Source: a virus (taxonomy: Duplodnaviria > Caudoviricetes). Taken from it: 64,000 bases of DNA. The notes beneath the pieces are model-generated. The model saw nothing but the letters and a program-made list of their open reading frames with translations. It made no database searches and was not told the origin of the DNA. The translations under genes and the position numbers were made by a program. Shown in pieces: positions 35,775-54,829 of the stretch. The number at the start of each line of letters is the position of its first letter. Position 1 is the stretch's first letter. Location: positions 1-64,000 of the IMG/VR virus record IMGVR_UViG_3300033066_002242. One strand, 5' to 3'.

Positions 35775-36197
35775 TTAGCTGCGTCCGCCGGATGTGGCAG
35801 CCAGGGCCAATCCTGCTGCCCCTGCCCCCGCCCCAATGCGGTAATTGGTTTGGTGGCGCAGGGACTGTTCGTACCCGGTGTGGTCAATACCCTTGGACTT
35901 CAGGTACATCAGCTTGCCTTCGCCGGTCATGCCCTCCATAGCCTTCATGTGGGCATCTACCTGGTTCTCCATCCCGGCAGCCCGGGTCAGTTTGCCTTTG
36001 GTGGCCTGTACGTGCTGTACGATCGTATGCTGGAGACGAGCATCCGCGTTTTCACCGGTGAGGTGCCCCAGAAACCCGGAGTGGTTGGCAGCGAGGGCGG
36101 TGTCTCCGGCTTTTCCTCCAAAGGTACTCAAAAGAGCCTTGCCGGGCAGTGCAGCGGCCACCTTGACCATGGCGTCCAGGTAAGCGTTATCGGTCAT
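35775..36197 (-). CDS. Leader-family virion cargo with C-terminal anchor
   Basis: MTDNAYLDAMVKVAA...IGAGAGAAGLALAAT. Confidence 0.8.
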   Translation of the reverse strand: MTDNAYLDAMVKVAAALPGKALLSTFGGKAGDTALAANHSGFLGHLTGENADARLQHTIVQHVQATKGKLTRAAGMENQVDAHMKAMEGMTGEGKLMYLKSKGIDHTGYEQSLRHQTNYRIGAGAGAAGLALAATSGGRS

Positions 36198-36205
36198 GGT
36201 GCACC

Positions 36206-37393
36206 TCAAGAGTTGTTGGAAGAAGGACGAGTGGCCAGGGCCGTGATTCCGGCCGCAGTAGCCACTCCGCCACCCACTGCCAGACGGGAGTGACCACGGG
36301 CGCGGATGGAGTTCTCCAGGGGTGCAGTATCGGCGTGGATGCCGCGCAGGTACTGGACCTGCCCCTGCTCGTCCAGACTGCCCAAAGCCTTCATGTGATC
36401 ATTATAGGCCAGTTTGTCATTGCCCGACGCCTTGGCGACCGTGTGCCGCAGCACAGAATCAGTGTTGGCCCCGGTAAAGGACGCCAGGTGACCCGACTCG
36501 ATGGCGGGAGTGTCGATACGTTCCCGAGGAGCCGGAGGGGCAACAGGCGTCGGAATTTCGGCGGGAGCCGCGTCCTCGATAGCCTTGCTGACCTTGTCCT
36601 TGGCGTAGCGGTGCAAACTTTCTTCCGGGGACAAGCGGGTAGGCATGAAACCTTTTATGACCACGTGGCCCTTGAATTGCCCCTTTTGCCAGTCATCATG
36701 CAGGTTGCCAAACGCCTTGATGTGCTTGCCTTCTACGCCGGCTTGCTGCATGACGTCCTTGATGCGCCCGTCCACCTCCAATGCACCCGGCGTCGAGGAG
36801 TCCAGGTTTATCCACTTACGACCGACGTTGTTCTGCAGGTAGTTGAGGCGCTCCAGCGGGGCGTTGGGGTTCTTGCCGGACTGCAGCACGCCACGCAGGT
36901 GGTCGATGATGTTGTCAGCCGTGTTGACAATCGCGTGCTCACCCACCTTACCGGCCGGCAATTTCAACGACACGGACCCCGTCTTAGAGCCTGGGTTGAT
37001 GTGCGCCTTGGCAACCCGAGTGAAGTCGGACACCATATCGTTGGTGGCGCCAGCTTCTTTCAGCGTGCGGCGCAGGCCTTCTGCTACTGCCCTGGTGGTT
37101 TCCAGATGCTGCGCATGGGAGACGGTACCCTGCTTCAGGCCATTCATGGAGTCCGACAGCACTCCCCGGAAATGGGAGATACGGTCATCCGGGTCCATCG
37201 CCCGGAACTTCTGCTCATCCATCCAGCCCGTCACCTCTCCACGAAGCTTGCCTGGTACACTGGCTACGGCTCCTTTGATCTTGCTCGCCCCTGCCCGGAG
37301 GCCGGGGGAGTTGGCGAAGTTACGGGCAGCCTGGACAGAGTTCTGGAAGATACCCGCTTGTTTGGACATTTCGTCCATGTACCGATTGGTCAT
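36206..37393 (-). CDS. Leader-family virion cargo with C-terminal anchor
   Basis: MTNRYMDEMSKQAG...LAVGGGVATAAGITALAT. Confidence 0.8.
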   Translation of the reverse strand: MTNRYMDEMSKQAGIFQNSVQAARNFANSPGLRAGASKIKGAVASVPGKLRGEVTGWMDEQKFRAMDPDDRISHFRGVLSDSMNGLKQGTVSHAQHLETTRAVAEGLRRTLKEAGATNDMVSDFTRVAKAHINPGSKTGSVSLKLPAGKVGEHAIVNTADNIIDHLRGVLQSGKNPNAPLERLNYLQNNVGRKWINLDSSTPGALEVDGRIKDVMQQAGVEGKHIKAFGNLHDDWQKGQFKGHVVIKGFMPTRLSPEESLHRYAKDKVSKAIEDAAPAEIPTPVAPPAPRERIDTPAIESGHLASFTGANTDSVLRHTVAKASGNDKLAYNDHMKALGSLDEQGQVQYLRGIHADTAPLENSIRARGHSRLAVGGGVATAAGITALATRPSSNNS

Positions 37394-38046
37394 GATTCTC
37401 TCCGATGAAACATCGCATACCCCAAGAATGGAGCACCAATGGCGCCACCTACGATTGCTGCTGTGGAGTGGAGTCTAGCGTGCTCCGCCCCGGTAGCGTA
37501 GATGGCCGACTTTAGCCTGGCTGCTTTGGCGGCTTCTTGCGCAAGCACTGCTCTACGACTCAAGAGGTGTGCCACACCTGCCGCCACACCTGCAGAGGCC
37601 AGTACTGCTCCACCCGCAATGGAGGCCCCGCGTCTGCCCGATGATCTTTTGGCGGCGGATACCACCGCGTCCTCCCCAGGCCCTGCCAACAAAGACTCTA
37701 CGTGCTCAGCAGAAGGTGCGTAGGACGTGCGTACCGGAGAAGACGGATGGGCAGAATTCCACACTTCGCCAAGCCTGGCTTTATGCTCAGGACCTCCATG
37801 CTGCATAATGGCAAGTCTGGCTTCATGGATGCTTGCATTCCCTGACGACAGATGAGAATGCAGCAGCTGTAAAGGATGCTCGGGGTTGGTGAGTATGTCT
37901 GGGAGAGGAGTACCGGCAGGAGGGTACAGGGTCCCATGAGTTGCCAGTACGTGGCTTTCAGCGTCATCTATTGCATTTGACAGCTTGGTCTTGACGGCAT
38001 CCACTGCCAGCAGCCGCGTCTGCTCCTTCTCTGTTGTATGTGGCAT
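37390..38046 (-). CDS. His-rich protein with two Gly/Ala hydrophobic segments
   Basis: GGAG RBS before ATG 38046; IAGGAVLASAGVAAGV and AIVGGAIGAPFLG. Confidence 0.75.
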   Translation of the reverse strand: MPHTTEKEQTRLLAVDAVKTKLSNAIDDAESHVLATHGTLYPPAGTPLPDILTNPEHPLQLLHSHLSSGNASIHEARLAIMQHGGPEHKARLGEVWNSAHPSSPVRTSYAPSAEHVESLLAGPGEDAVVSAAKRSSGRRGASIAGGAVLASAGVAAGVAHLLSRRAVLAQEAAKAARLKSAIYATGAEHARLHSTAAIVGGAIGAPFLGYAMFHRRES

Positions 38047-38062
38047 GACTCTCTCTCCATTA

Positions 38063-38965
38063 TCAGTTGCTAAGGGCGCGGCCGGCGACAATGCCGCCCA
38101 CGACGCCGCCGCCTACGAGCATGCCTTTCTGGGCAGTGGTCATCTTGGCGGCCTCTTTCCCAGCCTCCAAGCCCGCAGCGTGACCGGCTTCGTGGCCAGC
38201 GGTTCTGCCGGCGTTATACAGCATTTTGCCTGCCACCCCTGCGGCGCCTGCACCGGCAGCTACCTTGGCTGCGCCTTTCCGGGTGAATCTTGGCGTCTGC
38301 AAAGCTGACGTTGCAGCCTGCTGTGGGCTGGTGTTTTGCAATCTCACGTTGGTCGGCACGGAGGGAGGTGCCAGAGGAGCTCCGTGGGCGTGAGTGGCGG
38401 ACGTGCTGGCCGTGGAGTACGGCGTACTGCTGCCGGGTGCCGCGGCCTGTGGCGTTGCCGGAGCTTGGGGCTGTGCCTTGGGCGTTGCCGGAGCTTGGGG
38501 CTGTGCCTTGGGCGTTGCCGGAGCTTGGGGCTGTGCCTTGGGCGTTGCCGGAGGCTGCTGAACGTGCGTGCTGGAAGTGGCCGCAGGAGGAGCCAGCGGT
38601 GCCCCGCCAGCATGGGTTGCGGTCGCAGTGTTGGCTGCTGGAGTTTGTCGCTTGAGGTCGGCGTACCTTGCACCTGGAGCGTGGGCGTACCCAGGGTACC
38701 GCTGCTCCATGATCCGGTTCATCGCAGCGTGGTCCCTGGGGCCCCCGTGCCAGCTTATCGTACGCTTTATCGCCTCATCGTCGATGTGGTCTTTGGTTAG
38801 TACCTGCGACATGTCAGACGTTAAAGGTTTTCCAGTGGAGTGTGCCACTGCTGCCCCGTAGTCCGACGACGTGACGCGGTGCATAATGTGACGAAGTTCC
38901 TTCTCGCCGACGTCTGTCAGTGCCCCTGCCACTTTGACCATGGCGTATAGGTACCGGTTGCTCAT
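38063..38965 (-). CDS. Leader-family virion cargo with PAT-rich repeats
   Basis: MSNRYLYAMVKVAG...LVGGGVVGGIVAGRALSN. Confidence 0.8.
   Translation of the reverse strand: MSNRYLYAMVKVAGALTDVGEKELRHIMHRVTSSDYGAAVAHSTGKPLTSDMSQVLTKDHIDDEAIKRTISWHGGPRDHAAMNRIMEQRYPGYAHAPGARYADLKRQTPAANTATATHAGGAPLAPPAATSSTHVQQPPATPKAQPQAPATPKAQPQAPATPKAQPQAPATPQAAAPGSSTPYSTASTSATHAHGAPLAPPSVPTNVRLQNTSPQQAATSALQTPRFTRKGAAKVAAGAGAAGVAGKMLYNAGRTAGHEAGHAAGLEAGKEAAKMTTAQKGMLVGGGVVGGIVAGRALSN
38451..38553. repeat. 30-bp tandem repeat x3.4 (PATPKAQPQA)
   Basis: Identical units at 38451, 38481 and 38511. Confidence 0.95.
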
Positions 38966-38979
38966 ACTTCTCTCCACTA

Positions 38980-39921
38980 TCAGTTGCTAAGGGCGCGGCT
39001 GGCGACAACGCCGCCCAAGACGCCGCCGCCTACGAGCATGCCTTTCTGGGCGGTAGTCATCTTGGCAGATTCTACCCCGGCGGCAAGGCCAGCGGCATGA
39101 CCGGCTTCGTGGCCAGCGGTTCTGCCAGCGTTGTACAGCATCTTTCCCGCCACCCCCGCAGCGCCTACGCCAGCAGCTGCCTTGGCTGCGCCTTTGCGAG
39201 TGAACTTAGGGGACTGCAAGGCAGACGTTGCAGCCTGCTGCACAGAAGGAGAGCCCTGTTGGAAGGATACGTTGTAGGAGGTTCCAGGATGACCCAATGG
39301 AGCCCCATGCGCGTGAGATGCCGACGTGTTGCCGCCACCAAGAAGGGGAACATCATCCGCCATGGTGTACGGGCCACTGGTATGAGTGGCAGCAGCGGCA
39401 GGAGCCTTAGGCGCAAGATGATCAGCAGCTACGGGAACATCATCCGCCATGGTGTACGGGCCACTGGTACGAGTGGCAGCAGCGGCAGGAGCCTTAGGCG
39501 CAAGATGATCAGCAGCTACGGGAACATCATCCGCCATGGTGTACGGGCCACTGGTACGAGTGGCAGCAGCGGCAGGAGCCTTAGGCGCTGCACTGCGCAC
39601 CGCTCCTTTCCCTGCCAAGGCGGATTGCGCGGCTTGAGGCAGAGATGGCGTAGAACGCATGCCCGCCAGCATGCGCTCTTGATGAAGTGCTCTGCTCTCC
39701 AGACGTTGTCCGTGCTCTACTACGGCCTGCTGGAGAGTACTAAGAGCTGGCGCAGCGGCAGCATGAGCAGCAGGAGTCGCAGCGGCTTGAGGCAGAGATG
39801 GCGTAGAACGCATGCCCGCCAGCATGCGCTCTTGATGAAGTGCTCTGCTCTCCAGGCGCGCAGCAGTGCTTGAGAGCAAGCCAGCCACTTTTACCATGCC
39901 CGACAGGTACACGTTGTTCAT
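38980..39921 (-). CDS. Leader-family virion cargo, paralogue of 38063-38965
   Basis: MNNVYLSGMVKVAG; shared C-terminal ~100 aa. Confidence 0.8.
   Translation of the reverse strand: MNNVYLSGMVKVAGLLSSTAARLESRALHQERMLAGMRSTPSLPQAAATPAAHAAAAPALSTLQQAVVEHGQRLESRALHQERMLAGMRSTPSLPQAAQSALAGKGAVRSAAPKAPAAAATRTSGPYTMADDVPVAADHLAPKAPAAAATRTSGPYTMADDVPVAADHLAPKAPAAAATHTSGPYTMADDVPLLGGGNTSASHAHGAPLGHPGTSYNVSFQQGSPSVQQAATSALQSPKFTRKGAAKAAAGVGAAGVAGKMLYNAGRTAGHEAGHAAGLAAGVESAKMTTAQKGMLVGGGVLGGVVASRALSN
39346..39588. repeat. 87-bp tandem repeat x2.8 (29 aa)
   Basis: Units at 39346, 39433 and 39520. Confidence 0.95.
39629..39855. repeat. 74-bp exact direct repeat pair
   Basis: 39629-39702 equals 39782-39855. 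Confidence 0.9.
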
Positions 39922-40403
39922 TGGTACTGCTCCTGGTTGCGAGAGGACAAAGCACTGGTAGCGCCAACAGCGGCCGCAGCGGCGGTCCCTGCCCGGGATG
40001 TCGCTCGCAGGTTCATGGCCGCCTGCGCGTCTTTGACAGCGGCAGGTCCGAGATTGTCATGTGCGTATTGTAGCTTCTCAGCGTCGGTCATGCCGCGCAA
40101 GCCTTTTTCAAATTTAAGTGTCAGGCTTGGGTTGTTGTACTTGAGACTGGCGTGGGCCATCAGCACCTTGTTCACGCCGCCACCGGCCAACGTGGTCACG
40201 GCGTTGCCCACGCCTTGCGCCGCCCCTTTTACGGAGCGTACTCCTGCATCGAGAACGCTGCCCATCACGCCGGGGTTCTCCACGCTGCCCGCGACGGGAA
40301 GCACAGGCTCGGCGGCAGTGGCGCGCTCCAGCAGCCCACCCGTCCAGCGTCCTACGGAGAACTTGACAGCCAGCTTGGTCATCTCATCGTGGTAGCGATT
40401 CAT
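39918..40403 (-). CDS. Leader-family virion cargo
   Basis: MNRYHDEMTKLAV...AGTAAAAAVGATSAL. Confidence 0.8.
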   Translation of the reverse strand: MNRYHDEMTKLAVKFSVGRWTGGLLERATAAEPVLPVAGSVENPGVMGSVLDAGVRSVKGAAQGVGNAVTTLAGGGVNKVLMAHASLKYNNPSLTLKFEKGLRGMTDAEKLQYAHDNLGPAAVKDAQAAMNLRATSRAGTAAAAAVGATSALSSRNQEQYQ

Positions 40404-40404
40404 G

Positions 40405-40815
40405 TCAACCCCCGTAAGAGGCCATTCCGTACAGCGCCCCCAGGGCAGCGGCAGCGGCAGGGATGCCTACGCGCATGTGCCGGGACAGGCGGGTAGCTTC
40501 CGGAACCAAGGTGCGGCTGAGGTCGGCCTCGATGGCGCCGACACGGGCGAAGTGAGCACGCTCATGCTCCCGCAGTGCAGTCATCGAAAGGTTCTTGCTG
40601 GCGGCGTCCTGGAACTTGGCGGCGGACTCGGCCTGCAGGGACTCCGACATGGAGCGCAGGTACAGGTTCTGAGCCGCTGCCTGGACGTTGCGTTCCGGAA
40701 TGCGTGCCTCATGGACGCGCACCCCAAAGTGGCCCAGAGCCCCGCCCACGATAGCGCCGGTGGTCAGGTACGGGATAGCGGACGGACGACCGTCGTGGAA
40801 GGTAGGTTCAGTCAT
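40405..40815 (-). CDS. Two-Gly-zipper protein
   Basis: TGAIVGGALG and GIPAAAAALGALYG. Confidence 0.75.
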   Translation of the reverse strand: MTEPTFHDGRPSAIPYLTTGAIVGGALGHFGVRVHEARIPERNVQAAAQNLYLRSMSESLQAESAAKFQDAASKNLSMTALREHERAHFARVGAIEADLSRTLVPEATRLSRHMRVGIPAAAAALGALYGMASYGG

Positions 40816-41363
40816 GAGTATTGCTTCCGATTATGCCGGTTGGCGTGGAAAACGTCGGTGTAGAGGGACTCTGCCAGAAGATCGGCCGCAGCGATGTAGC
40901 CACCGTGGTACGCAGCGTACTTCCAGGGATGAAGAGGTAGCTCACTGGCCTGCTTGTACATGCTGTGGAGGGCGTAGGCTCCAGCAGCGCCAGCGGCCAA
41001 GGTCGCGCCGTAGCCTATGGTGGCGGGTCGCTCTGCCAGGAACTTGCCGATGCTGTTGCGGATGGTGCCTTCGGTGTTGCTGGAGAGAAGGTCATGCCCC
41101 ATGTCGGAGACAACCTTGGTCAGCCCGGCTTCTTTGGTATGGAACATTGCGGCTCCTGCTCCGTAGGCGGTAGCGCCAATGCCGAGGACTTCCGCCGTGC
41201 GGATGGCATCCGGGTGCCGCTGGGCAAAGGTGCCGATGCTGGTGGCCACCAGCTTGCCGGTAGGTCCCATGTCTTGCGCATGCTCTACCAGAATGGATCC
41301 CTTACGGGCTATTTCTGCCGGCTCATTGCGGAGACCAGCTTCTATCATGCTGCCGAGTGACAT
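40812..41363 (-). CDS. Putative polyprotein of tail-anchor modules
   Basis: GGAGG RBS; two hydrophobic segments each followed by KEAG or KQAS. Confidence 0.75.
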   Translation of the reverse strand: MSLGSMIEAGLRNEPAEIARKGSILVEHAQDMGPTGKLVATSIGTFAQRHPDAIRTAEVLGIGATAYGAGAAMFHTKEAGLTKVVSDMGHDLLSSNTEGTIRNSIGKFLAERPATIGYGATLAAGAAGAYALHSMYKQASELPLHPWKYAAYHGGYIAAADLLAESLYTDVFHANRHNRKQYS

Positions 41364-41384
41364 GTGTACCTCCACGTTCACCCT

Positions 41385-41393
41385 AGTTTAGCA
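41385..41393 (-). promoter_or_regulatory. Candidate late promoter (TGCTAAACT)
   Basis: Just after a terminator, 22 nt before ATG 41363. Confidence 0.55.
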
Positions 41394-41412
41394 TTGGCGG
41401 TTTGACGCAAGC

Positions 41413-41441
41413 AAAAAAGGCGGGCACTAAGCCCGCCTTTT
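41413..41441. terminator. Terminator after the capsid operon
   Basis: AAAAGGCGGGC-actaa-GCCCGCCTTTT. Confidence 0.85.
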
Positions 41442-41459
41442 CAGTACCGCCAGATGCCG

Positions 41460-42518: not shown

Positions 42519-42535
42519 ACCTGCTCTCCTGGGAA

Positions 42536-43633
42536 TCAGACGTCGCCGTCGGCTTCAATGTCAAACGCAGCCAGGCGGAAGCCTTGCACGTTACCGTAGC
42601 CGATACCGACCGATTCGTACACGTAGAACTCGACCATGTCGGCCTCGTTCTTCAGGAACACCGTCGGCTCTTGCAGGCTGTAGAACTGGCCCAGATAGCC
42701 TTCGGGGGCGAAGATCGCCACCAGGTCACCGATATAGCCAGCATCAAGGTGTTCGCTCAGACCAGAGGTCATGATGTCCAGCTTGATGGTCGGAATGAAG
42801 GTGTAGCCATACATTCCGTTCATTTCCTCGCCACGGAAGTGGGAGTCAGCCAACAGCGAACCCACCACCGAGCTCGGACGAGACAGCAGCACGTTGTACA
42901 GGGTGTACGGCAGCAGGATCTTCGCCGGCTTTTGACGCGCGCCAACCAACTGGTTGATGGCACGGATCATGGTCTTCACGCCGAAGCCAGGACCCTTGTG
43001 GCTGGTGCCGGTGTCGTACCCAGGAGAGTAGATGCCGGTCTGCGAGGCCAGGCCGCCTGCACCGAGGTTCACCTTGTATGCGTAGTTGGCGTCAACTGCG
43101 TAGGCAGGGTTAACCACGACAGCACCGGCAACCAGCATGGTGCCGTGGTTGGCTGCAGCGATCTGCTTCAAGCCTACCATGTGGTTCACGTCTTCCTGTT
43201 CGTGAATATCCTTGACGCTGTTACCCTGGATGACCTGACGGATATCCGTGGCGTAGGTGGCCAGTTCGTACTTGGACTTCTTGAAGACCTTGGAAACGAT
43301 CTTCTCGAAAGTCACCTCGTACCGTGCGCCCTTGAAGTAGCGCACTTCGCTGGTGCCCAGCAGGGAGATCGTGGCAGCAGTGGAGTCAGGCTCCTTCTCC
43401 ACGATCTTGCGCGGCTGGTCGGTATCAACGTCGCGGTCCAGGTCCGCCGAGGTCAGCAGCTGCGGGGTGTAAATCTGACGGGTCGTGCCGTCTTCACGCA
43501 GCTTCTGGCGAACAAAGGCGGTCATGGACGTTTCGGCCGCCTTGGTCATTTGAGGGTCACCGCTATTCAGGCGGTCCACGAAAGCCGTATTGAAGAGACG
43601 GACATTGGTGGTTTCGATTCCATATTCAGCCAT
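42536..43633 (-). CDS. Major capsid protein
   Basis: Size and position after protease, scaffold and decoration genes; strongly biased codons; N-terminal MTKAA site. Confidence 0.75.
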   Translation of the reverse strand: MAEYGIETTNVRLFNTAFVDRLNSGDPQMTKAAETSMTAFVRQKLREDGTTRQIYTPQLLTSADLDRDVDTDQPRKIVEKEPDSTAATISLLGTSEVRYFKGARYEVTFEKIVSKVFKKSKYELATYATDIRQVIQGNSVKDIHEQEDVNHMVGLKQIAAANHGTMLVAGAVVVNPAYAVDANYAYKVNLGAGGLASQTGIYSPGYDTGTSHKGPGFGVKTMIRAINQLVGARQKPAKILLPYTLYNVLLSRPSSVVGSLLADSHFRGEEMNGMYGYTFIPTIKLDIMTSGLSEHLDAGYIGDLVAIFAPEGYLGQFYSLQEPTVFLKNEADMVEFYVYESVGIGYGNVQGFRLAAFDIEADGDV

Positions 43634-43645
43634 GTCAGCTCTCCG

Positions 43646-44113
43646 TTACTTGACTTCGATGACGGCAGACGACGGTTGACCGCCGGTGCCAGGGATGATC
43701 TGCAACACAGTGCCAGCATAGGCATCCGTAAGGACAGCAGCTTTTTTGAACACCCCGGGTGCGCCTCCTGCCAGAGCAGTGGCCACCACGTGGTCGCCAA
43801 CAGCCAGCAGCGGGTCGAACTTGGTCGTACGTACCAGGTAGTTACCCCACAGCACGATTGGACGCTGAGTCTTGGCGACCGACTTGTCGTCGCTGGTGCC
43901 TCTCACCACGATGCCGAAGCTGGCGTACAGAGTGCCGTTGGTAGGCTTGACCAGTTCACTGGACGAGTTCAGCACCACCAGGTCGCCGTTAGCGCAAGTA
44001 ACGCCGGCAGCCATTTTGAAACGGTTGGATTCGCGGTTACCGGAATCCGGGGAAGTAGGCCAGCCGCGCAGGAACTCAGCGGGGTAGTCCATGATATTCA
44101 GGTCAAAAGCCAT
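43646..44113 (-). CDS. Head decoration/cement protein
   Basis: Beta-rich, GDLVVL...FGIV...GDHV pattern; precedes the MCP. Confidence 0.55.
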   Translation of the reverse strand: MAFDLNIMDYPAEFLRGWPTSPDSGNRESNRFKMAAGVTCANGDLVVLNSSSELVKPTNGTLYASFGIVVRGTSDDKSVAKTQRPIVLWGNYLVRTTKFDPLLAVGDHVVATALAGGAPGVFKKAAVLTDAYAGTVLQIIPGTGGQPSSAVIEVK

Positions 44114-44139: not shown

Positions 44140-44502
44140 TTAATTGAGACCAAAAGCGAAAGCTTCCATCGGGTCGACGTCTTGCCCAGCCTGGGAAGCC
44201 GCTTTGCCCATTTCCCAGCCTTCCTGGGGATTCCGCATGGTGTTCGCCACTTTGCGCAGCAGGTCTGCCGGCAAGGTATCGACCATCATCTGGGCTTCAC
44301 TCGGAGTCAACCCGGAAGACGCGAGGTCTTCAGAGGCGTCCTGCAAAGAAGCCTGCTTTACGGTCTCCAGGGTCCCTTCCAATGCCATGAGTTTAGCTTG
44401 CAGGTCCTCGATCGTGCGATCTTTTTCCGTCAGAAGCTCTGCGGATTTTTCAAGGATGCCTGCCAGCCGCATCTTTTCAGTTACGGATACAGTTTCGGTC
44501 AC
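44140..44502 (-). CDS. Scaffold-like KxA-rich coiled-coil protein
   Basis: GTGA overlap; four KxA sites; C-terminal DPMEAFAF. Confidence 0.6.
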   Translation of the reverse strand: MTETVSVTEKMRLAGILEKSAELLTEKDRTIEDLQAKLMALEGTLETVKQASLQDASEDLASSGLTPSEAQMMVDTLPADLLRKVANTMRNPQEGWEMGKAASQAGQDVDPMEAFAFGLN

Positions 44503-45299
44503 GAGATTTCTCCCATCTGGTCCAGCGCAGATAACGCCTGACTGGCAGCATCCGCGCTGATTTCTCCGCGTACCAGACGCAGACAAATGTCTTCTGAGGC
44601 CAGCTTGTTAAGGCTGGTGGAGCCGATGGCGTTGTCGATGACAGCGTCCGGAACGCGGCTGACTTCGTTCTCACGAAGCGCACGCATCCGTGCCACGGCC
44701 GCCTCTCCTTCCGGGCTGGACATGGCGCGGTCAGCAAACAGCTGGGAATCAGGCAGGTGACTTTCCTTGGTGGCGTGTTGCACGGCTCGGGAAAGGGCAA
44801 ACCCTCCCATGGTGCCGGCAATGCCAGCCAGCGACAGCGCGCCTTTAGGGGTGCTGGGGTGGACGTGGCGAAGCACCTCATGCGCCGCGCCGCCAGCCAC
44901 CATACCGGTGACCAGCTGTGCAACGTGCGCCGGGATGCTGTTGGTGTAGGAGGCTTGGTGGCCTCTCACCAGCTGGCTGTGTGCATCCTTGCGTGCCATT
45001 TGATCCGCCATGTACTCCCGGAATTGCTCCCGGTCTTTTTCCCCGTACCCAGCCGACTTCCGCATGCCTTCCACTGTTTGCACAATTTCAGCCACGTCGT
45101 CGACTTCCCAGATATCAGCCGCCTTCACCAGAAAGGATTCGGACACCTGATCCGCCAGGTCAGTGACGCCTGCGTCTGCCGCTGCTTTTTCAAGCAACTG
45201 CACTGCGCAGTGACCAAGCACGCAAAGCTGGCCGACTTCTTCCTCGGCTTGCTTGCGAAGCTCTTCAGCTTGCTTGCGCAACAGTGTGACAATGTCCAT
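44499..45299 (-). CDS. KxA-rich head protein with an internal Gly-zipper module
   Basis: Six KxA sites; hydrophobic pair between MRKSAG and LNKLAS. Confidence 0.65.
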   Translation of the reverse strand: MDIVTLLRKQAEELRKQAEEEVGQLCVLGHCAVQLLEKAAADAGVTDLADQVSESFLVKAADIWEVDDVAEIVQTVEGMRKSAGYGEKDREQFREYMADQMARKDAHSQLVRGHQASYTNSIPAHVAQLVTGMVAGGAAHEVLRHVHPSTPKGALSLAGIAGTMGGFALSRAVQHATKESHLPDSQLFADRAMSSPEGEAAVARMRALRENEVSRVPDAVIDNAIGSTSLNKLASEDICLRLVRGEISADAASQALSALDQMGEIS

Positions 45300-45320
45300 G
45301 CCGACCCCGGTCAGAAGCAA

Positions 45321-45965
45321 TCAGGAATAGAGAATCTGTGCAGCGCTGGCTTCCACGGCCTGGAGGGCGGTGTAGGCGTCGCAGCCCTGGGCAACCAGGT
45401 CATTCACGGCAGCTGCCTTGGCCATCTCGATGACCTGATTGGCTTCTGCTTCCTCAGCTTGCTTGATGTGCTCCACGGCATCGCTGACGGTAAAACCTTG
45501 ACGCACCAGCTCAGTTACCTGAGCAGCCTTATACATGTTCTCGTCTTCACGAGCCATGTTGTCTTCGGCCTGCTTCAGCAGGGAGAAGGCTTCGTCAACG
45601 GTGTAGCCTTCATCCACGAAAGCAGTGATGGCGGCGCACTTCATCTGTTCCGGGCTTTGACCGACAGAGCCCATGGCAGAGCCATTAGGGGCAGCGGGAT
45701 ACTGGCCGGCACCGCCTTCAGCCAGTTCTTCTTCAGCGATTTGCTGGTGGGCGCCATTGGCGATACCTTGCAGAATCAGCTGTTCCAGAGTCTGGGTAAC
45801 GGAAGCACCAGCACGCGGAGTAGCCGGCTGGTTGGCCATTTGCTCAGCGATCATCTGGTCGCTACCGGCGATGGTGGCGTTGGCAACCTTGTTCATACCG
45901 CCATTGGCCAGGTTGGCCAGCAACTGATCGGTCAGAGCGCGGGCCTTGGCTTGAGATTCATTCAT
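45321..45965 (-). CDS. Scaffolding/core protein with three helical repeats
   Basis: KxAA...LV..G.....A repeats; acidic. Confidence 0.6.
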   Translation of the reverse strand: MNESQAKARALTDQLLANLANGGMNKVANATIAGSDQMIAEQMANQPATPRAGASVTQTLEQLILQGIANGAHQQIAEEELAEGGAGQYPAAPNGSAMGSVGQSPEQMKCAAITAFVDEGYTVDEAFSLLKQAEDNMAREDENMYKAAQVTELVRQGFTVSDAVEHIKQAEEAEANQVIEMAKAAAVNDLVAQGCDAYTALQAVEASAAQILYS

Positions 45966-45978
45966 TGCAATGTCCTCG

Positions 45979-47463
45979 TTAGAGTGCAGGTTTCAGCCGG
46001 GAGAGGTCCCTACGCAGGGATGCCTCAAGCAGCTTGTTTGTGATTGGACTATCGCTGGCCTGCTTGACCTGATAGCTGCCGTACCCTGATTTTAGCCGAC
46101 TTTTATCGGCTACCAAGGAATGTAGCAAAAATCGGGCAACAATGGCACCCCCTGCCAACGCCAACAAATGGTCCATCAAAGTGGGGGAAATAGCGGGCTC
46201 CGCTGGAGAAGACGGACCGCCTCCGTAAAGCGATCCCAGGGGGGGTACGTATCCCCAAGGAACATCCTGTGGGAAGTATGCACGCTTTTCCACACAAGTG
46301 GGTAGCGCCGAACACTGATCTTGATATCCTGCCAGTTCCTTTAGCAGCCAGTGATTCGTTTGTTCCGGGTAGACGTCAGGCACCAAGGTGGCAGACTGTA
46401 CCGGCAGGGCGGATAGCGGAAGGTTAGGCAGCAGTCTCCCTACCAGTTCGCCAATGCCTTCTCCAGGAATTCCCTGGACCTTGGCGATCATCTCCGCCAG
46501 GAACTCCAGGGAGGGAATCATGCGAAGATCCGCCAGCGCGTTCATGACCTGGTTGAAGCCTCCCATGTGCAGTAGGGGGCCTGCCAAGCTGGACGATACC
46601 GGAGACACGGACTTCAACAAATCCTGCAAGGACTTGTCTGCGGCCATGACGCTGCCACCGGGCACTTCCTTGATGAGGTCCGCCATCTTGCGGAAAGCCG
46701 CTTGCTTGATAGCCTCTGCCGGCCGCACTTCTCCGGGCTCTTCCAGAGACAAGCCTGCTTCTTCCCCCAATACCGCGCTGGGGACAACGTGGGCATTGGC
46801 GACCTTGCGCAGCACGGAAGACGTGACGTCTGCCGGTCGCAAGACCATGCTCATGTCGAAAAAGGTCAGCTTGGCCAGGTTCAGCGCCATGACACGGCGA
46901 CCGTCTGCATACAGGCGGTTCATTTCCTTGCGCAGGTGTTCGCAGTACGCCTTGACGCTGCGCGCCTGGTTGCCACAGATGGAGCACTGGTCCCACGGAG
47001 TCTTACACGCCATGGAGGTCGATGGGTAGTCACCGCGGGCAATACGTTCCACAACGTCCTTCGCCTTGTCGGTGAAGATTTCCTCGACGACTTCCACCCG
47101 GTGCATGTCGTAGTTGTAAATGGCAAACAGGACCCGGCCAATTGCGGTGGCAGGATCCGTGTTGACGTGGTGGCGGTACACGTAGCCGTGTTCTTCAAAG
47201 GTCTTGTGGTACAGGATCAGCTGTTCTTCCGGGAACCAGTCGCCGTTCTTGTTGCTGCCGTAGTACTCTCCTGCGCCCATGGCGTTGACATGCAGGTATA
47301 TCTTGCCGGGCTCGGGGTTGAGGCGGGAGGTCACGTAGTCGTCAATGTCCTTCTGTGCGGCACTCTTGACCAGCCCTTCTACCGGGCGGCCGGGAGTAAT
47401 GATTCGCATCGGGATGTCATCCTCCCGATAAAACGACCCGATATCCACCAGCTTATGGAGCAT
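45979..47463 (-). CDS. Prohead maturation protease with Zn-finger insertion
   Basis: NKNGDWF, YRHH, IGRV, TSMAC, CSICGN..CEH, FFDMSMVLRPAD (HK97/assemblin-like). Confidence 0.8.
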   Translation of the reverse strand: MLHKLVDIGSFYREDDIPMRIITPGRPVEGLVKSAAQKDIDDYVTSRLNPEPGKIYLHVNAMGAGEYYGSNKNGDWFPEEQLILYHKTFEEHGYVYRHHVNTDPATAIGRVLFAIYNYDMHRVEVVEEIFTDKAKDVVERIARGDYPSTSMACKTPWDQCSICGNQARSVKAYCEHLRKEMNRLYADGRRVMALNLAKLTFFDMSMVLRPADVTSSVLRKVANAHVVPSAVLGEEAGLSLEEPGEVRPAEAIKQAAFRKMADLIKEVPGGSVMAADKSLQDLLKSVSPVSSSLAGPLLHMGGFNQVMNALADLRMIPSLEFLAEMIAKVQGIPGEGIGELVGRLLPNLPLSALPVQSATLVPDVYPEQTNHWLLKELAGYQDQCSALPTCVEKRAYFPQDVPWGYVPPLGSLYGGGPSSPAEPAISPTLMDHLLALAGGAIVARFLLHSLVADKSRLKSGYGSYQVKQASDSPITNKLLEASLRRDLSRLKPAL

Positions 47464-47473
47464 GTCGATCCCC

Positions 47474-48055
47474 TTACTTGAAGGCGTAGTCCTTCATCTG
47501 CTGCTTGTTGGTCTGCTTCATCCGGCCTTCCAGGTTCGTCAGCATGTCGATGGTCTTCATGTCGATGCCACCGGCTTCCAGGGAAGTCAGCAAGGTGCTG
47601 GCCAGCAGGTTGGCGTCTGCCGCGGCAGAGGGGGCGTACTTGAAGATCGTGGAGGCCAGGGCGTTGATCTGCATCGGGTCGGCACGCTGGAGCATGGGCT
47701 CACGCTGTATGGCCTGGTGCAGTGCCTGGCGGAAAGCGTTGGCTTGAGCCGGGTTGCTGATCGCCGCCCGGTTAAGGTTGGCCAGGCCCAGCAGCGCCCC
47801 GCCTACCAGGGTAGCGCCCATGATGCCTGCGCCGACCTTGCCCAGGTTGCTTGCCATGTCGGAAGCAACAGAGTGCGCCATGGAAGGGCCGTCTCCAAAG
47901 AAAGCCGCCGTCTTTTCCATCGGCAACGCCTTGAACGCCACGATGACTTCGTCTGCCAGGTCCGTAGCACCGCGGTGGGTATGCCCCTGTTTGCGAAGCT
48001 CCTGTACGCAGGCGCGCTTGAGGTAGTACTCAAAAGGTAAGGTCGTCATGGTCAT
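47474..48055 (-). CDS. Head-associated protein with KxA site and hydrophobic segment
   Basis: MEKTAA; AGIMGATLVGGALLG. Confidence 0.7.
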   Translation of the reverse strand: MTMTTLPFEYYLKRACVQELRKQGHTHRGATDLADEVIVAFKALPMEKTAAFFGDGPSMAHSVASDMASNLGKVGAGIMGATLVGGALLGLANLNRAAISNPAQANAFRQALHQAIQREPMLQRADPMQINALASTIFKYAPSAAADANLLASTLLTSLEAGGIDMKTIDMLTNLEGRMKQTNKQQMKDYAFK

Positions 48056-49215
48056 GCCTCGGGGGTCTTGTGGAGAGCGTCCCAGACGCTGTGCTCCTTC
48101 TGGATCATCTGTGCGCCGAACCCGACGTCCATGGCCGTCATCGCCTTGGCGCCGATACTGGTAGCTGCGCCGGGGAACTTCTTCAAGTGCTCATTCGACG
48201 GCGACCCGGTAAGCAGGCCTGCCAGGGAGTCCCGGTAGTTGCTGGCCAGGTTCTTCAGGTTGCCAGATGGGGTACGGAAGTTCTCGGCACTCTTGCGCAG
48301 CGGTTGCGCCCGGCCTTCTGTGGCAACCGGTCCGATCTTGATGCCTGCCTCCGGACTGCCCTTGGCTCCCATATAGCTCTGACGAACCGAGTTACGAACC
48401 TGCGCACCGGCATTGCGGGTGGGGACAGAGTGAACGGCAACGTGGGCGTGCTCGAAAGGAGTCTTCAGAAGGGACATGCGCAAGTCGACGCCGGCAATCT
48501 TCTTCAGCTCTTCCTGGAGGAAGGTGTGGCGGCCCAGCATGTCAGAGGCCTGCTTGAGCATGGCGCCGACCTTGCGGACCTGCTTCATCTCCACGGAGGA
48601 GAACATGCCGGAGGGCAGGGTGGACGCCTTCTTGCTCATGCCGTCCGGCAGCAGGCCTTCCATCAGGTCAGCGCCGGGGCCGGTGTACTCATTCATCTTT
48701 TCCTGGACCCAAGGATCCTGCACCAGCATTCTGGCTTCCTTCTGCAGCTGCTCTCCCAGTGACATCATCTGGATGGACAGCGACTCGGACTCGGCTTCGC
48801 AGCGAACCTTGGCGTCCATTAGCTGACGTGCACTTTGGTGGGCAGAAGCTTCCTTGACCAGGTCTGCCGCCTCTGGCTCTGCCAGGGAGGCTGACTTAAC
48901 CATGGGATTCGGATTCAGCATTGCTATGGTATCGTCCAGCAGGGACGAATACTCCGGAAAGTCGGGGATGATGGAGGCCACCTTGACCATCTTGGAGTCC
49001 GCCAGTGGGAACGTAAAGGTACGGTCCTGGGCAGACTCCTGGAGCTTGAGGTAGGTCACCTGGTTGGACAGTTCCACCAAACGCTTGACCTGCTCATCGT
49101 TGAGGTCACGTGCCATGGCAATCTTGGTGATAGAGTCGTTCAGCGGAATTCCGCCGGAGATAAAGCTGTTGACCGCTTCCGCAGCCATCGTCTTGAGCAG
49201 TTCGGCATCAAACAT
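48052..49215 (-). CDS. KxA-rich head/core protein
   Basis: AGGAG RBS; nine KxA sites. Confidence 0.7.
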   Translation of the reverse strand: MFDAELLKTMAAEAVNSFISGGIPLNDSITKIAMARDLNDEQVKRLVELSNQVTYLKLQESAQDRTFTFPLADSKMVKVASIIPDFPEYSSLLDDTIAMLNPNPMVKSASLAEPEAADLVKEASAHQSARQLMDAKVRCEAESESLSIQMMSLGEQLQKEARMLVQDPWVQEKMNEYTGPGADLMEGLLPDGMSKKASTLPSGMFSSVEMKQVRKVGAMLKQASDMLGRHTFLQEELKKIAGVDLRMSLLKTPFEHAHVAVHSVPTRNAGAQVRNSVRQSYMGAKGSPEAGIKIGPVATEGRAQPLRKSAENFRTPSGNLKNLASNYRDSLAGLLTGSPSNEHLKKFPGAATSIGAKAMTAMDVGFGAQMIQKEHSVWDALHKTPEA

Positions 49216-49244
49216 GGAGATGCTCCTGGAATCATGCAAGTAGT

Positions 49245-50006
49245 TTACATCAAATCCCAATCGGGTTCCTTTTTCTGCTCAGGCCACATCGCTTTAGCGG
49301 CCGGATGCTGCGCTACCCGGGTATTGACGGATAGCGCTTCGTTCAAGGCTTCTGCATTGGACATGTTGCTGGCATCCTGGAGCAGTTCCGGGTCGTCGTC
49401 CACGTCTTCCAGATTGGGTATCTCGACTTCCTTGGCGTCGATTCCTTCCAGCGCCAGTTCCAATTCGTCCAGCATGCCTTTCTTGTCCGTGACCCACCCC
49501 TTGACCTGGCGACCCAATGCCATGGCGACCATGGTCCACTTACGGGCCTCGCCGTCGTCAATCGTGCCGCTGGACTCAAAGAACGCCTGCTTGGCTTTAT
49601 AGATGCAGTCTGGCAGCAGCATCTGCATGCCCTCTACCGGAGATAAATCTACCGGAAGCCCCAGTCGCCACTTGACCCATTCCAGGCCTTGCGTCAGTGC
49701 CCATAGCTTCAAGGTGCGCTCTTCCTGGGACTCTACCCTATGGATAAGTTCCAGCTTGCGCATCTTGGTGAACCGGCTGACGGGGAAGTGCTTGTCCTCG
49801 TACACCTCGATAGCGGGTACCGGAAGCCCCAGTACTTCGGAGATAGCGTCAAAGTCCGGGGTCGCCAGCAGACAGGCCTCCAGGTACATTCTCTGGAAAG
49901 CACTTTGTCGGACCTCCATGACCAGACTGAAAACCTCCAAGTCCGCTTCATCGTTCATGCCATGCGCCTTTATGCTCACCGGGGTAGTCCGGTGAGTGTA
50001 TGACAT
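49245..50006 (-). CDS. Hypothetical protein (HTH-like N-terminus, acidic tail)
   Basis: FDAISEVLGLPVPAIEVY; start uncertain. Confidence 0.65.
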   Translation of the reverse strand: MSYTHRTTPVSIKAHGMNDEADLEVFSLVMEVRQSAFQRMYLEACLLATPDFDAISEVLGLPVPAIEVYEDKHFPVSRFTKMRKLELIHRVESQEERTLKLWALTQGLEWVKWRLGLPVDLSPVEGMQMLLPDCIYKAKQAFFESSGTIDDGEARKWTMVAMALGRQVKGWVTDKKGMLDELELALEGIDAKEVEIPNLEDVDDDPELLQDASNMSNAEALNEALSVNTRVAQHPAAKAMWPEQKKEPDWDLM

Positions 50007-50020
50007 TACAGAAGCGGCAG

Positions 50021-50485
50021 CTACCGGGAGACGCCGTACGGGTTCCGCGACGTCTTCAATGCCCCTTCTACTGCATCCGGTCGAACACCTGTAACGGGCG
50101 CTCCTGCATTTTTGTACTGTGTGGACGGGGAAATACCCAATGCCTTGTGGTACTGCTCTGTGTGATCGCGCAGTCCTTGGTTGTGGGCGTCCATTTGAGA
50201 CTTTGTGTATGTCAGCTTCTTCTGCACGTCCTGCAGGTCTTGTATCCGCTCCGGAGTGGTGCCTTTGCGGTACATATTGGAGGCAATACTTCTCGCCTCC
50301 TCGGTCTGCCAGTGGTGGATGTCTGCCAGACCATCCAAGTGAGTAGAGTGCTCGTGCGCGAGCCCTAGATGATACGCAGCTTTATCTGCAGCTTCCCCAG
50401 ACGCACGGGACATGGTGCGCAGAGTGCTTACTGGCGGAAATATAGCCGCCGCCTTGATCATGCCATCGAGATACGGGTTGCTCAT
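50021..50485 (-). CDS. Leader-family virion cargo without TM anchor
   Basis: MSNPYLDGMIKAAA; GAGG RBS. Confidence 0.75.
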   Translation of the reverse strand: MSNPYLDGMIKAAAIFPPVSTLRTMSRASGEAADKAAYHLGLAHEHSTHLDGLADIHHWQTEEARSIASNMYRKGTTPERIQDLQDVQKKLTYTKSQMDAHNQGLRDHTEQYHKALGISPSTQYKNAGAPVTGVRPDAVEGALKTSRNPYGVSR

Positions 50486-50495
50486 GCTTTCGCCC

Positions 50496-52445: not shown

Positions 52446-52447
52446 GG

Positions 52448-54277
52448 TCAGTACCTGCCGTTTTCGCCTTCACCGAAGGCCTTGCCGAGAATGTAGGGAG
52501 TAATAGGGTCAGTGGACCGAGTCGGAGACTCATGCGCCATGGCCGCTGCTTCTATGATACTTGATTTTAGGTTAGACGACGCCAAACGGGATATCCAATT
52601 GGGGTCCAGCAGCTTGGATTGCTTCACGCCCGTGGCTATCGGGTCGACGATCATGCCGCTTTCGCTGATCGGAACCTCCGTAACACCTTTCTTATTCAGG
52701 TCCAGGATGTGGTACGCATCCAGCCGGGTGCCTGGCATGAGCTCCCCGATACGCCGGGACAGCACCTTACCGGCGGCGCGCTCGATGGGCACCATACGGT
52801 GGTCAGCATCCAGGATGTGCTGGATCTGGTTGACGTTGACCACGTCTCCCGGCAGGTAATCGCTGTCGCCGGGGTCGCGGATGGTCACGTACTTGGCCAT
52901 GTTCTTGGCGATGACGTCGAAGTGCCGGGGGTCGTACCCTTGACCGTACACTTCCCGCATCTTCTCGGCCAGGTACTTGCGACCGGCGCCATGGCCGCGA
53001 AGCTCGACCAGGTGCTTGGGATTGGGGGTGCCTTCCGCCAGCTGCTGGCCAGCGTAGACCTCGTCTCCGTGCTTGACCAGGACGCCCTGGTGACGATCAA
53101 CGAAGTGGCTGTGGTTGCCAATCCAGATATGAGAGTCGCCCAGGGCGGTCTTCTCGATCTTGGTGACCTTGCCTGGTACAGACGCCAAAGTGGCTTCATC
53201 CAGGAAGTTCTCCGGGATGGTCAGGATGTTACGGGCGGACTCCAAGGTGCCGGCCGTGCGCTTGACGCCGGAACCTGCCGTACCGCCTTGGTGCTTGGAG
53301 CCGATAACCGCCTGCGTCAGGCCTTCCGATATGGACTGGACACCGATGACGCCCACGTTCTCGCCGATAGGAGGGAATTCTCCGCGGGAGTCATGGCCGT
53401 AGCACTTCTGACAAATGCCTTCCGGGGCCTCACAGGTCTGCGGGTTGCGCACGACGACCATCTTCTTGCCGCTGTCCACCGCGTCCTTGTACTTGGCGTC
53501 GGTAAACACGGAGTCCGTGCCTGCTTCCACCATGCCGATGATCCGCTTCTTGTCAGAGATGGGGACATCGATGCCGTGGTGGGTCTTGCAGTCGTGGATC
53601 GTGATCACCTCATGAAATGCCGCCGGGATGATCTTCTTGAACAGCGCCCCTGGCTCCGAGGTGGCCATCTGTGTCTTGATGGTCGCCGCCCGGCCGCCGT
53701 AGGACATGGCCATGTGCTCTGCCGGGGATAGGCCCTCGGCAAAGGAGTGGCGAATCGGCAGAGGGATGGGAGTGCCCTCAATGTCGATCGACATCATGGG
53801 GCTGAACGTACCCTGACCGAGTTGCATGGGGTTGCCGCGCGCGCCGGTCATCGCCATAAGTCCCGCAGTGGACCCCTTGCCAACCATGTGCTTGAGGTTG
53901 ATCTTCTGGGAGGTCGACACGTAGGAGGAGGCCACGTCTTCCACCATGGCGTTCCGCTGCGACTTGGAAAGCTTGGGGTTGTTGGAGACCTCATTGATCT
54001 TGTCCGCGAACTCTGCCAGCAGCACATGGCGTTCAGGAGAGTCGTTCTCGTAGTCCGTCAGCGGCGTGGAGAACCCGTTAACCGTGGCGGTGTGGAAGAA
54101 CAAGTTGGACAACGCCTGGATGGACTCGTGCGCCTTGTCGCCGCCGTGCTTGATGCACAGGGACATGAGGTGCGCTACGCCAGGCTTGTCCAGCAGCATA
54201 TTCGGGTCGTAGTACTTCTGCGCCTCTTCGGGCAACAGGCTTTTGACCAACAAGCTACCGGCAGTGGACATGTACAC
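52448..54277 (-). CDS. Phage multisubunit RNA polymerase beta-prime subunit, C-terminal part
   Basis: GARGN, SFAEGL, bridge helix, DC.T..G, C...GICQKCYG Zn site, GENVGVI..QSISE..TQ......H.GG trigger loop, jaw, RHFDVI, switch regions. Confidence 0.93.
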   Translation of the reverse strand: MYMSTAGSLLVKSLLPEEAQKYYDPNMLLDKPGVAHLMSLCIKHGGDKAHESIQALSNLFFHTATVNGFSTPLTDYENDSPERHVLLAEFADKINEVSNNPKLSKSQRNAMVEDVASSYVSTSQKINLKHMVGKGSTAGLMAMTGARGNPMQLGQGTFSPMMSIDIEGTPIPLPIRHSFAEGLSPAEHMAMSYGGRAATIKTQMATSEPGALFKKIIPAAFHEVITIHDCKTHHGIDVPISDKKRIIGMVEAGTDSVFTDAKYKDAVDSGKKMVVVRNPQTCEAPEGICQKCYGHDSRGEFPPIGENVGVIGVQSISEGLTQAVIGSKHQGGTAGSGVKRTAGTLESARNILTIPENFLDEATLASVPGKVTKIEKTALGDSHIWIGNHSHFVDRHQGVLVKHGDEVYAGQQLAEGTPNPKHLVELRGHGAGRKYLAEKMREVYGQGYDPRHFDVIAKNMAKYVTIRDPGDSDYLPGDVVNVNQIQHILDADHRMVPIERAAGKVLSRRIGELMPGTRLDAYHILDLNKKGVTEVPISESGMIVDPIATGVKQSKLLDPNWISRLASSNLKSSIIEAAAMAHESPTRSTDPITPYILGKAFGEGENGRY

Positions 54278-54280
54278 CTC

Positions 54281-54829
54281 TCAGCGCAGGAAGCCGCGGG
54301 AGAAGATGCCCTTGGCGCTTCCCAGGAAGTCACGGCCGCTCTGGGCGGTCTCCTGGAGGACCTGTTTCAGTCCTTCCGCGGTCTGGATGTGAGCGTGCAA
54401 CGGGTCGGCCGGGTTGCTGCGAATCTGGTTCAGACGGTTGATCAAGGCATACTCGTGCTTGGGTGTCAGGCGCAGCGCTTTGGATGCTGCAACCGGATCG
54501 CCGTGAACCAAGTGGTGCAGTGCGCCGCCCACATCGGCACGGCTGTAGCCACCGTAGAACATACCCGCCGTGTCGAGGGCGTTCTCCACGCTCTTCATGG
54601 CGCCCAGACCCTTGTTGGCCACGTCGGATACCGCGGTGTGGGCGCTTTGCAAGCCAGCCAAGGTTTTTTCAGCCAAGGTAGGGGCAGGGATGGCAGACAG
54701 CTTGTACTTGTCCAGCGCACCGGCAGCCAGCATGCCGCCTCCTACGGCTCCCGTGGCTCCTATGGCTACGTTCCGGGCAGTGTTGTCGGCTGCGATCTTG
54801 CGCATACCGCTTTCGTAGATGTTGTCCAT
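54281..54829 (-). CDS. Leader-family virion cargo with N-proximal Gly-zipper
   Basis: MDNIYESGMRKIAA...VAIGATGAVGGGMLAAG. Confidence 0.75.
   Translation of the reverse strand: MDNIYESGMRKIAADNTARNVAIGATGAVGGGMLAAGALDKYKLSAIPAPTLAEKTLAGLQSAHTAVSDVANKGLGAMKSVENALDTAGMFYGGYSRADVGGALHHLVHGDPVAASKALRLTPKHEYALINRLNQIRSNPADPLHAHIQTAEGLKQVLQETAQSGRDFLGSAKGIFSRGFLR

Follow-up and report, generated by a model that had tools for sequence, protein, structure and literature searches.

In phage T4, a short N-terminal peptide known as the capsid targeting sequence is carried by a set of diverse proteins (IPI, IPII, IPIII and Alt) and ends in the motif of the protease gp21, which also processes the capsid, the scaffold and itself (PMC9026906; PMC3012670). 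Within this peptide targeting depends on residues 4 and 7 and processing on residues 8 and 10 (PMC9026906), and among the diverse internal proteins of the T-even phages the tag is the only part that is shared (PMC3012670). A different signal has been described in phage P1, where the N-terminal 30 residues of DarB suffice to send a reporter into the capsid (PMC9024508). From a broader perspective, phiKZ and SPN3US (gp175/gp245) combine a virion multisubunit RNA polymerase with many ejection proteins and a self-cleaving protease; in SPN3US the paralogous head proteins gp53 and gp54 have identical N-terminal 15 residues that contain the protease motif, and a transmembrane helix is predicted in gp47, an ejection protein that undergoes processing (PMC5694885). 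Here we describe a leader peptide of the pattern N-x-[YF]-x-x-x-M-x-K-x-A, found at the N-terminus of several different proteins in a tailed phage (Caudoviricetes) represented by the IMG/VR record IMGVR_UViG_3300033066_002242. The window, that is, the whole stretch of DNA analysed, is the first 64 kb of this single viral contig of 95,555 bp.

The leader appears to be an analogue of the T4 capsid targeting sequence and not a member of its family: the two are alike on every point that can be tested from sequence, and a similar function is what this likeness suggests. As in T4, a short N-terminal peptide is found on diverse proteins, it seems to end in the motif of a gp21-fold protease that would process the capsid, the scaffold and itself (PMC9026906; PMC3012670), it looks bipartite, with upstream residues including aromatics set apart from the last residues used for processing (PMC9026906), and the set of carriers differs between related phages (PMC9026906; PMC3012670). 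Unlike the T4 tag, to which it has no sequence similarity, the leader ends in hydrophobic-x-K-x-A and not in [LI]-x-E, without any Glu, and its carriers have Gly/Ala-rich tails and low-complexity repeats, whereas the T4 cargo consists of small basic soluble proteins. The phage itself is not T4-like; its clade is Arash-like and has a bacterial-type RNA polymerase of its own. The [SAG]-x-E motif of phiKZ and SPN3US (PMC5694885), which this phage would resemble in the features listed above, is also different, and their genomes are much larger. Searches of the leader proteins against PHROGs and Pfam gave no matches to the described phiKZ-like ejection families. The DarB signal of P1, also N-terminal, is described for DarB alone and with no tie to a protease motif in those parts of the source that are used here (PMC9024508).

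That the N-terminal tag is real is statistically overwhelming. Among about 130 proteins (31,165 aa) the strict pattern has eight occurrences, all of them at residue 2-4 from the preferred start codon, against a chance expectation of 0.0085 for the whole proteome and 0.0002 for N-termini. Two variants complete the set of proteins with this common short peptide: a short form, MNDMTKIA, which opens a 352-aa protein, and a tenth case with a three-residue insertion, MNPYLENMRQMQKSA, which starts a 461-aa ORF at genome position 68633 on the plus strand, outside the window. The earlier note on this DNA had listed eight genes with the motif together with the short form, and all nine N-termini were found on the minus strand where it had placed them:

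1..396, minus strand: leader gene, 132 aa shown, MNPFFDEMTKLA; cut by the contig start, with a Gly/Ala-rich segment near the C-terminal end
35775..36197, minus strand: leader gene, 140 aa, MTDNAYLDAMVKVA; Gly/Ala tail; paralogue of the 395-aa C-terminus and of the 154-aa protein
36206..37393, minus strand: leader gene, 395 aa, MTNRYMDEMSKQA; C-terminal module and Gly/Ala tail
38063..38965, minus strand: leader gene, 300 aa, MSNRYLYAMVKVA; Gly-rich tail and Pro/Ala tandem repeats
38980..39921, minus strand: leader gene, 313 aa, MNNVYLSGMVKVA; internal repeats; paralogue of the 300-aa protein
39918..40403, minus strand: leader gene, 161 aa, MNRYHDEMTKLA; orthologue known in the relative L001
41460..42518, minus strand: short-form leader gene, 352 aa, MNDMTKIA; two Gly-rich hydrophobic segments, with H-x-K-Q-A after each
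50021..50485, minus strand: leader gene, 154 aa, MSNPYLDGMIKAA; without a hydrophobic segment; the position is empty of it in L001
54281..54829, minus strand: leader gene, 182 aa, MDNIYESGMRKIA; directly upstream of the RNA polymerase beta'-C gene, with an N-proximal Gly-rich segment

A GGAG/GAGG Shine-Dalgarno-like element lies 6-11 nt 5' of the ATG of each leader gene, and apart from this sequence the DNA upstream of these genes is unrelated. At the conserved leader residues the synonymous codons vary (AAG/AAA for Lys, GCC/GCG/GCA/GCT for Ala, TAC/TAT for Tyr, AAC/AAT for Asn). Because of this variation and of the unrelated upstream DNA, the peptide itself is to be regarded as the selected entity. 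The N-terminus scan of the genome found no plus-strand early gene with a leader start.

By capsid protein, the cultured relatives of this phage are Salmonella phage Arash (46% identical) and Vibrio phages D69, D181 and D148 (44%), and a search of IMG/VR based on the major capsid protein returned 79 related loci, most of them with a capsid identity of 32-37%. In the head modules of these relatives, down to 33% capsid identity, leader-type N-termini of the form [YF]-x-x-x-hydrophobic-x-K-x-[AS] have been found; examples from distant relatives are MSRFDETVAKIA, MNYDALMQKLA and MSDNFFDKFIADLVKGA, the first of which directly opens a member of the 193-aa head protein family described below. An alignment of twenty such leaders is in register, each of them having Tyr or Phe at the aromatic position. 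A leader-profile search of five complete relatives gave seven matches in the close 144-kb relative and three, two, one and none in the four distant ones, where the matches fall mostly on the 193-aa family and its neighbour. By this distribution the tag is an old one, but only this phage and its close relative use it on many proteins. Among orthologues, the leader is retained and the next 25-40 residues do not align. Thus, in L001, the close relative, the orthologue of the 161-aa protein has retained the leader as well as the C-terminal 120 aa (42% identity) around a stretch that cannot be aligned, and a 60%-identical orthologue of the 182-aa protein also retains it. This phage has six leader genes downstream of the capsid gene, and L001 has three. 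In Arash, a loose-pattern scan for leader-type N-termini returned mostly noise and no clear long-form leaders, while in D69 three small unannotated proteins start with a K-x-A leader:

L087 9766-9945: D69 protein, 59 aa, MDKVAK
L087 18649-18957: D69 protein, 102 aa, MFKSAS
L087 23220-23675: D69 protein, 151 aa, MDNVDTLLEKIAA

Two of these three also have Gly/Ala-rich segments, and the 59-aa protein, in which MDKVAK is combined with a Gly-rich segment, occupies the position of the 182-aa gene of the present phage. The earlier note had called the tag portable. This is weakened by the paralogy of some carriers, and also by the fact that the tag is in wide use nowhere but in this phage and one close relative.

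The end of the leader is a motif that recurs throughout the head module. In 27 head-module proteins, a set chosen partly for containing leaders, [MLIVFT]-x-K-x-A is present 62 times versus 14.0 expected, a count that 0/500 shuffles reach. Most of this excess comes from leaderless proteins (nine sites in the 402-aa protein, eight in the 289-aa, seven in the 273-aa, and four each in the 214-aa protein, the 148-aa protein and the protease), and there is no excess elsewhere, with six sites versus 9.6 expected in the early genes, four versus 5.0 in the tail genes and 10 versus 12.0 beyond 70 kb. The head proteins most concerned are the following:

42536..43633, minus strand: major capsid protein, 365 aa; M-T-K-A-A at residues 29-33
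44140..45965, minus strand: three scaffold-like proteins of 214, 273 and 148 aa, with four, seven and four sites
45979..47463, minus strand: predicted prohead protease, 494 aa; N-domain with the T4 gp21/herpesvirus-protease fold
47474..48055, minus strand: conserved head-module protein, 193 aa; K-x-A at 48-50
48052..49260, minus strand: scaffold-like protein, 402 aa; nine hydrophobic-x-K-x-A sites; homologue of Arash gp220
886..1755, minus strand: second scaffold-like protein, 289 aa; eight sites; homologue of Arash gp242; adjoins the leader gene at 1-396

An unbiased scan of the whole genome of Arash gave the same picture, its four most enriched ORFs being the head orthologues (gp220 with nine sites versus 0.9 expected, gp223 with eight versus 0.9, gp242 with eight versus 1.2 and the protease gp222 with six versus 1.1). 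The Arash head module has 29 motif sites in all versus 6.3 expected, and the remaining genome 79 versus 77.1. The same trend is seen in Vibrio phage D69, where a slightly wider pattern finds 10, 9 and 11 sites in the scaffold-like ORFs. Single sites are also conserved: the K-x-A of the capsid protein, at residues of about 26-33, is kept in 78/78 full-length relatives and lies at about residue 25 in Arash and D69, and in the 193-aa family K48 and A50 are nearly invariant. A Pfam search of the head proteins found nothing. As for the 193-aa protein itself, its AlphaFold model (pLDDT 78) has two helical domains joined by a Gly-rich linker with pLDDT below 50, and a Foldseek search of the PDB with this model found nothing significant, the best rows having an E-value of 2.6 and including some ECF sigma factors.

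The head module also contains a candidate for the enzyme that would recognize this motif. The N-domain of the 494-aa protein was modelled with AlphaFold from a 20-sequence alignment (mean pLDDT 72.9, core 85-94), and the best Foldseek match of the model is T4 gp21 (5JBL, E 6e-4, probability 1.0, TM 0.64 on the target), followed by herpesvirus proteases. A PHROG search gave a weak match to head maturation protease, and a PDB sequence search found nothing. In the alignment with 19 relatives H98, H99 and S150 are invariant. Judging from the modelled fold, the 494-aa protein is the prohead protease of this phage, of the gp21/assemblin type. It has K-x-A sites of its own: K220-V221-A222, directly behind the protease domain, is invariant in the 20 sequences (this phage and its 19 relatives), a second site near residue 30 (31-35 here) is present in most of them, and further sites lie in the C-terminal extension. 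Just after the conserved Ser, residues 153-176 contain the invariant C153, C160, C163 and C174 and a nearly invariant H176 (C-x-x-C ... C-x-H), which looks like a zinc-binding insert; we know of no such insert in T4 gp21.

The herpesvirus assemblins cut [VLI]-x-A-S after Ala and before Ser. They resemble the present enzyme in having a related fold and in the arrangement of a protease domain followed by an extension with sites of the self-cleavage type, one of them invariant here at the domain boundary; unlike in assemblin, the residue two positions before Ala is Lys and not hydrophobic, and the position of the cut in this phage is put forward by analogy. Hydrophobic-x-K-x-A is taken to be the recognition motif of the phage's own protease, because enrichment in head proteins only, conserved capsid sites and sites flanking the protease domain together reproduce the pattern known from T4, phiKZ and SPN3US (PMC9026906; PMC5694885). 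The cut would probably fall after the Ala of the motif, with Lys at P3, Ala at P1 and a small residue at P1', since the distance between its two fixed residues is that of the T4, phiKZ and herpesvirus motifs and since Ser, Ala or Gly comes next in 32/61 sites, much as Ser does in the herpesvirus site. The earlier note had placed a protease site at the end of the leader, and this receives support from the presence of the same motif in the capsid protein, the protease and the scaffold-like proteins, in a phage with a protease of predicted gp21 fold.

The part of the leader upstream of this motif distinguishes it from the internal sites. Met occupies the hydrophobic position in 10/10 leaders versus 15/52 internal sites; counting from that position, an aromatic residue is found at -4 in eight of ten leaders versus four of the 52 internal sites, and Asn at -6 in eight of ten versus three of 52. 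As a sequence pattern, N-x-[YF] is essentially leader-specific, so that residues of a putative targeting part can be told apart from those for processing. With a cut after Ala the aromatic would be P9 and the Asn P11, beyond the normal subsites of a protease, and the hydrophobic leader positions (-4, 0, +3 and +4) would lie on one face of a helix. Because these upstream residues fall outside the subsites, and because the T4 tag is split in a like manner between targeting and processing residues (PMC9026906), the leader may also dock the protein beyond offering a cut site.

We therefore hold, with modest confidence, that the leader is a two-part propeptide of the T4 kind, both clipped by the protease and targeting its carrier to the head. 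Its last five residues, hydrophobic-x-K-x-A, would be the recognition site of the prohead protease, and the upstream N-x-[YF] would dock the protein in the assembling prohead, either to its scaffolding core or to the protease. By this docking the tagged protein would end up inside the shell, and during maturation the protease would remove the leader and free the protein, as happens for the T4 capsid targeting sequence. Taken separately, the two functions differ in strength: cleavage of the leader by the prohead protease is probable, and a role as a capsid-targeting signal can be proposed tentatively. Arash, a myovirus, gives the general setting: its purified particles hold the RNA polymerase beta and beta' subunits of the phage among 116 proteins in total, as well as many small head-module proteins (PMC10585845), and it follows that the clade loads numerous proteins into its heads.

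Several observations weigh against this picture. The mass spectrometry of Arash was tryptic and reached about 100% coverage for several head proteins (PMC10585845); owing to this coverage, and to the fact that trypsin itself cuts after Lys, that proteome does not show processing. RNA polymerase subunits, the clearest cargo, which are found in the particles of Arash, have no leader, and no homologue of the leader proteins was found in Arash by tblastn. In the short forms M-x-K-x-A starts at residue 1 (MNDMTKIA here, MDKVAK and MFKSAS in D69), so that a separate docking element would hardly fit in. In L001, a 400-aa ORF (13688-14890, plus strand) homologous to the 395- and 140-aa genes contains two leader units in frame, and the second leader (NPYLHSMCKAAG) lies inside the ORF, directly behind a Gly-rich tail and a QQKQA site; the ORF is either a polyprotein cut by the protease or the site of an internal GTG start. 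Finally, some carriers are related to each other. One group of paralogues consists of the 140-aa and 154-aa proteins and the C-terminus of the 395-aa protein (BLASTP 1e-7 and 9e-6), and in another the 300- and 313-aa proteins have a common C-terminal third that is 72-79% identical. The claim of the earlier note that the bodies are mostly unrelated has thus to be qualified by these two paralogue groups, and it stands for at least five carriers, those of 132, 161, 182, 352 and 461 aa, whose similarity to the others is limited to the leader.

Some of these observations would be expected if the leader were simply a short propeptide with a protease site, whose clipping releases or activates the protein, while entry into the prohead depended on other contacts, such as the pairing of Gly/Ala-rich segments with those of the core proteins and the protease. 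The short forms and the leader internal to the L001 ORF fit this explanation, as do the K-x-A sites found throughout the head module and the Gly-rich hydrophobic segments of the 193- and 273-aa proteins and of the protease extension. A protease site by itself does not account for the Asn and the aromatic residue, which at P11 and P9 are far outside the usual subsites and yet are conserved in the leaders and rare among the internal sites, nor for the retention of the aromatic in every aligned leader of the distant relatives. A leader without any targeting role is accordingly considered unlikely, while being the most serious of the alternatives. The paralogue groups raise the question of common descent, in which the leader genes would be diverged duplicates of one or two head genes, with the N-terminus as their best-conserved remnant and not a mobile tag. 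The clustering of the leader genes, their different number here and in L001, which fits duplication and loss, and the limitation of the leader to about two proteins in distant relatives go in the same direction; against this, the five carriers just named are alike in the leader only, and a selective retention of the leader would still imply a function, so that descent addresses the origin of the tag and not its mechanism. As an alternative to the two-part propeptide, it is improbable.

It can also be asked whether the tag is read by a factor other than the protease, namely a chaperone, a modifying enzyme or a membrane-insertion factor, or whether the carriers are membrane-anchored assembly or lysis proteins located outside the capsid. 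The C-terminal Gly/Ala-rich segments with their short polar or basic end do resemble tail anchors, but the tag ends in the very motif that marks the capsid, protease and scaffold-like proteins, there is no gene for another enzyme alongside the leader genes, and the leader has no signal-peptide features while the segments are poor transmembrane candidates. The probability of this explanation is put a shade lower still than that of descent. A nucleic-acid element (a promoter, a translation-initiation region or a recombination repeat) that encodes the peptide by chance has nothing in its favour beyond the repetition itself, and it was rejected with near certainty on account of the codon variation, which extends to every conserved residue, and of upstream DNA that has only the Shine-Dalgarno sequence in common.

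The carriers are small, fast-evolving, low-complexity proteins, and PHROG and Pfam searches with all of them, as well as an ESM Atlas search with the 395-aa protein, gave no match or no usable one. In all except the 154-aa protein there are Gly/Ala-rich segments of about 17-20 residues, mostly at the C-terminus with a short polar or basic end behind them. Gly-rich segments recur in conserved head proteins, namely those of 193 and 273 aa and the protease, where the segment lies in the C-terminal extension. The earlier note had taken these segments for hydrophobic anchors, present in all but the gene at 50021-50485. The segments are indeed there, and an anchor role is not supported by their marginal hydrophobicity: the best 17-residue Kyte-Doolittle mean is about 1.3-1.8, with two carriers below 1.3, and on a translocon-insertion scale the insertion free energy is +1.9 to +7.4 kcal/mol versus -0.9 and +0.9 for two clear membrane proteins of the genome. 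Pfam searches of the leader proteins for membrane families, with E up to 1, gave no match, and together with the insertion scores they separate the carriers from the C-tail-anchored ElaB/YqjD-type (DUF883) and Gly-zipper membrane families. The segments may serve as weak tail anchors or, just as well, keep the scaffolding core together through glycine-zipper contacts. Among processed ejection proteins, SPN3US gp47 with its predicted transmembrane helix is a precedent (PMC5694885). Since the tails are only weakly hydrophobic, membrane anchoring and ejection into the host inner membrane, both proposed in the earlier note, remain speculation. The boldest version of the idea is a long shot: the leader would load a varying set of tail-anchored glycine-zipper proteins which, after ejection, form a conduit or compartment in the host inner membrane where the co-injected RNA polymerase and DNA start the infection. 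If true, a contractile-tailed phage would deliver its own membrane proteins.

The principle of a packaging tag is already established for T4 and P1. If the present reading were confirmed, the leader would be a second capsid-targeting tag, unrelated in sequence to the first, and K-x-A a new prohead-protease specificity, both applying to a large and almost unstudied clade that packages its own bacterial-type RNA polymerase (Arash, D69, D181 and D148). Throughout the clade one could then predict where the mature capsid, protease, scaffold and cargo proteins begin and end; a list of candidate injected proteins would follow, and hosts beyond the range of T4 and P1 might gain a protein-packaging tag.

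As regards the genomic context, the close relative, with a capsid protein 77% identical, has a complete genome of 144 kb with direct terminal repeats, and for this reason the present contig is probably a fragment of about two thirds of the genome. Structural genes occupy the minus strand at 28.3-64 kb and 1-2.7 kb, and small early-type genes the plus strand at 3.8-28.3 kb. Along the direction of transcription, the head module begins with the 182-aa leader gene, the RNA polymerase beta'-C gene (54277-52448), a 649-aa structural protein and the 154-aa leader gene, continues with the 253-, 402- and 193-aa proteins, the 494-aa protease, the 214-, 273-, 148- and 155-aa proteins and the major capsid protein (43633-42536), and ends in a block of ten small genes (42518-35365). 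The leader is present on six of these ten, and three others have only Gly/Ala-rich segments:

37390..38046, minus strand: non-leader protein, 218 aa, among the leader genes; two Gly/Ala-rich segments
40405..41363, minus strand: non-leader proteins of 136 and 183 aa, with Gly/Ala-rich segments; M-Y-K-Q-A directly behind the segment of the 183-aa protein

In the same block, the 300- and 313-aa proteins (38063-39921, minus strand) contain in-frame tandem repeats, namely PATPKAQPQA in three copies, a 29-residue unit in three and a 26-residue unit in two, and in L001 an (APKTEAPAAE)-like unit is repeated about eight times in the orthologue of the 395-aa protein. Such repeat stretches are fast-changing spacers.

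A second small module on the minus strand (886-2684 and 1-882) is made up of a 310-aa protein, the 289-aa K-x-A-rich protein, a Gly-rich 160-aa protein and a leader gene. The same order is found in the close relative, where it is followed by more leader ORFs (G001 31.3-33.3 kb). The 649-aa protein (50496-52445, minus strand) was considered as the portal and rejected, as its match in Arash is the virion protein gp218. The portal counterpart is likely a 579-aa ORF at genome positions 75143-76882 on the minus strand, by length and gene order only, the annotated portal of Arash (gp204) also being of 579 aa. This ORF has one I-R-K-Q-A site, at residue 56.

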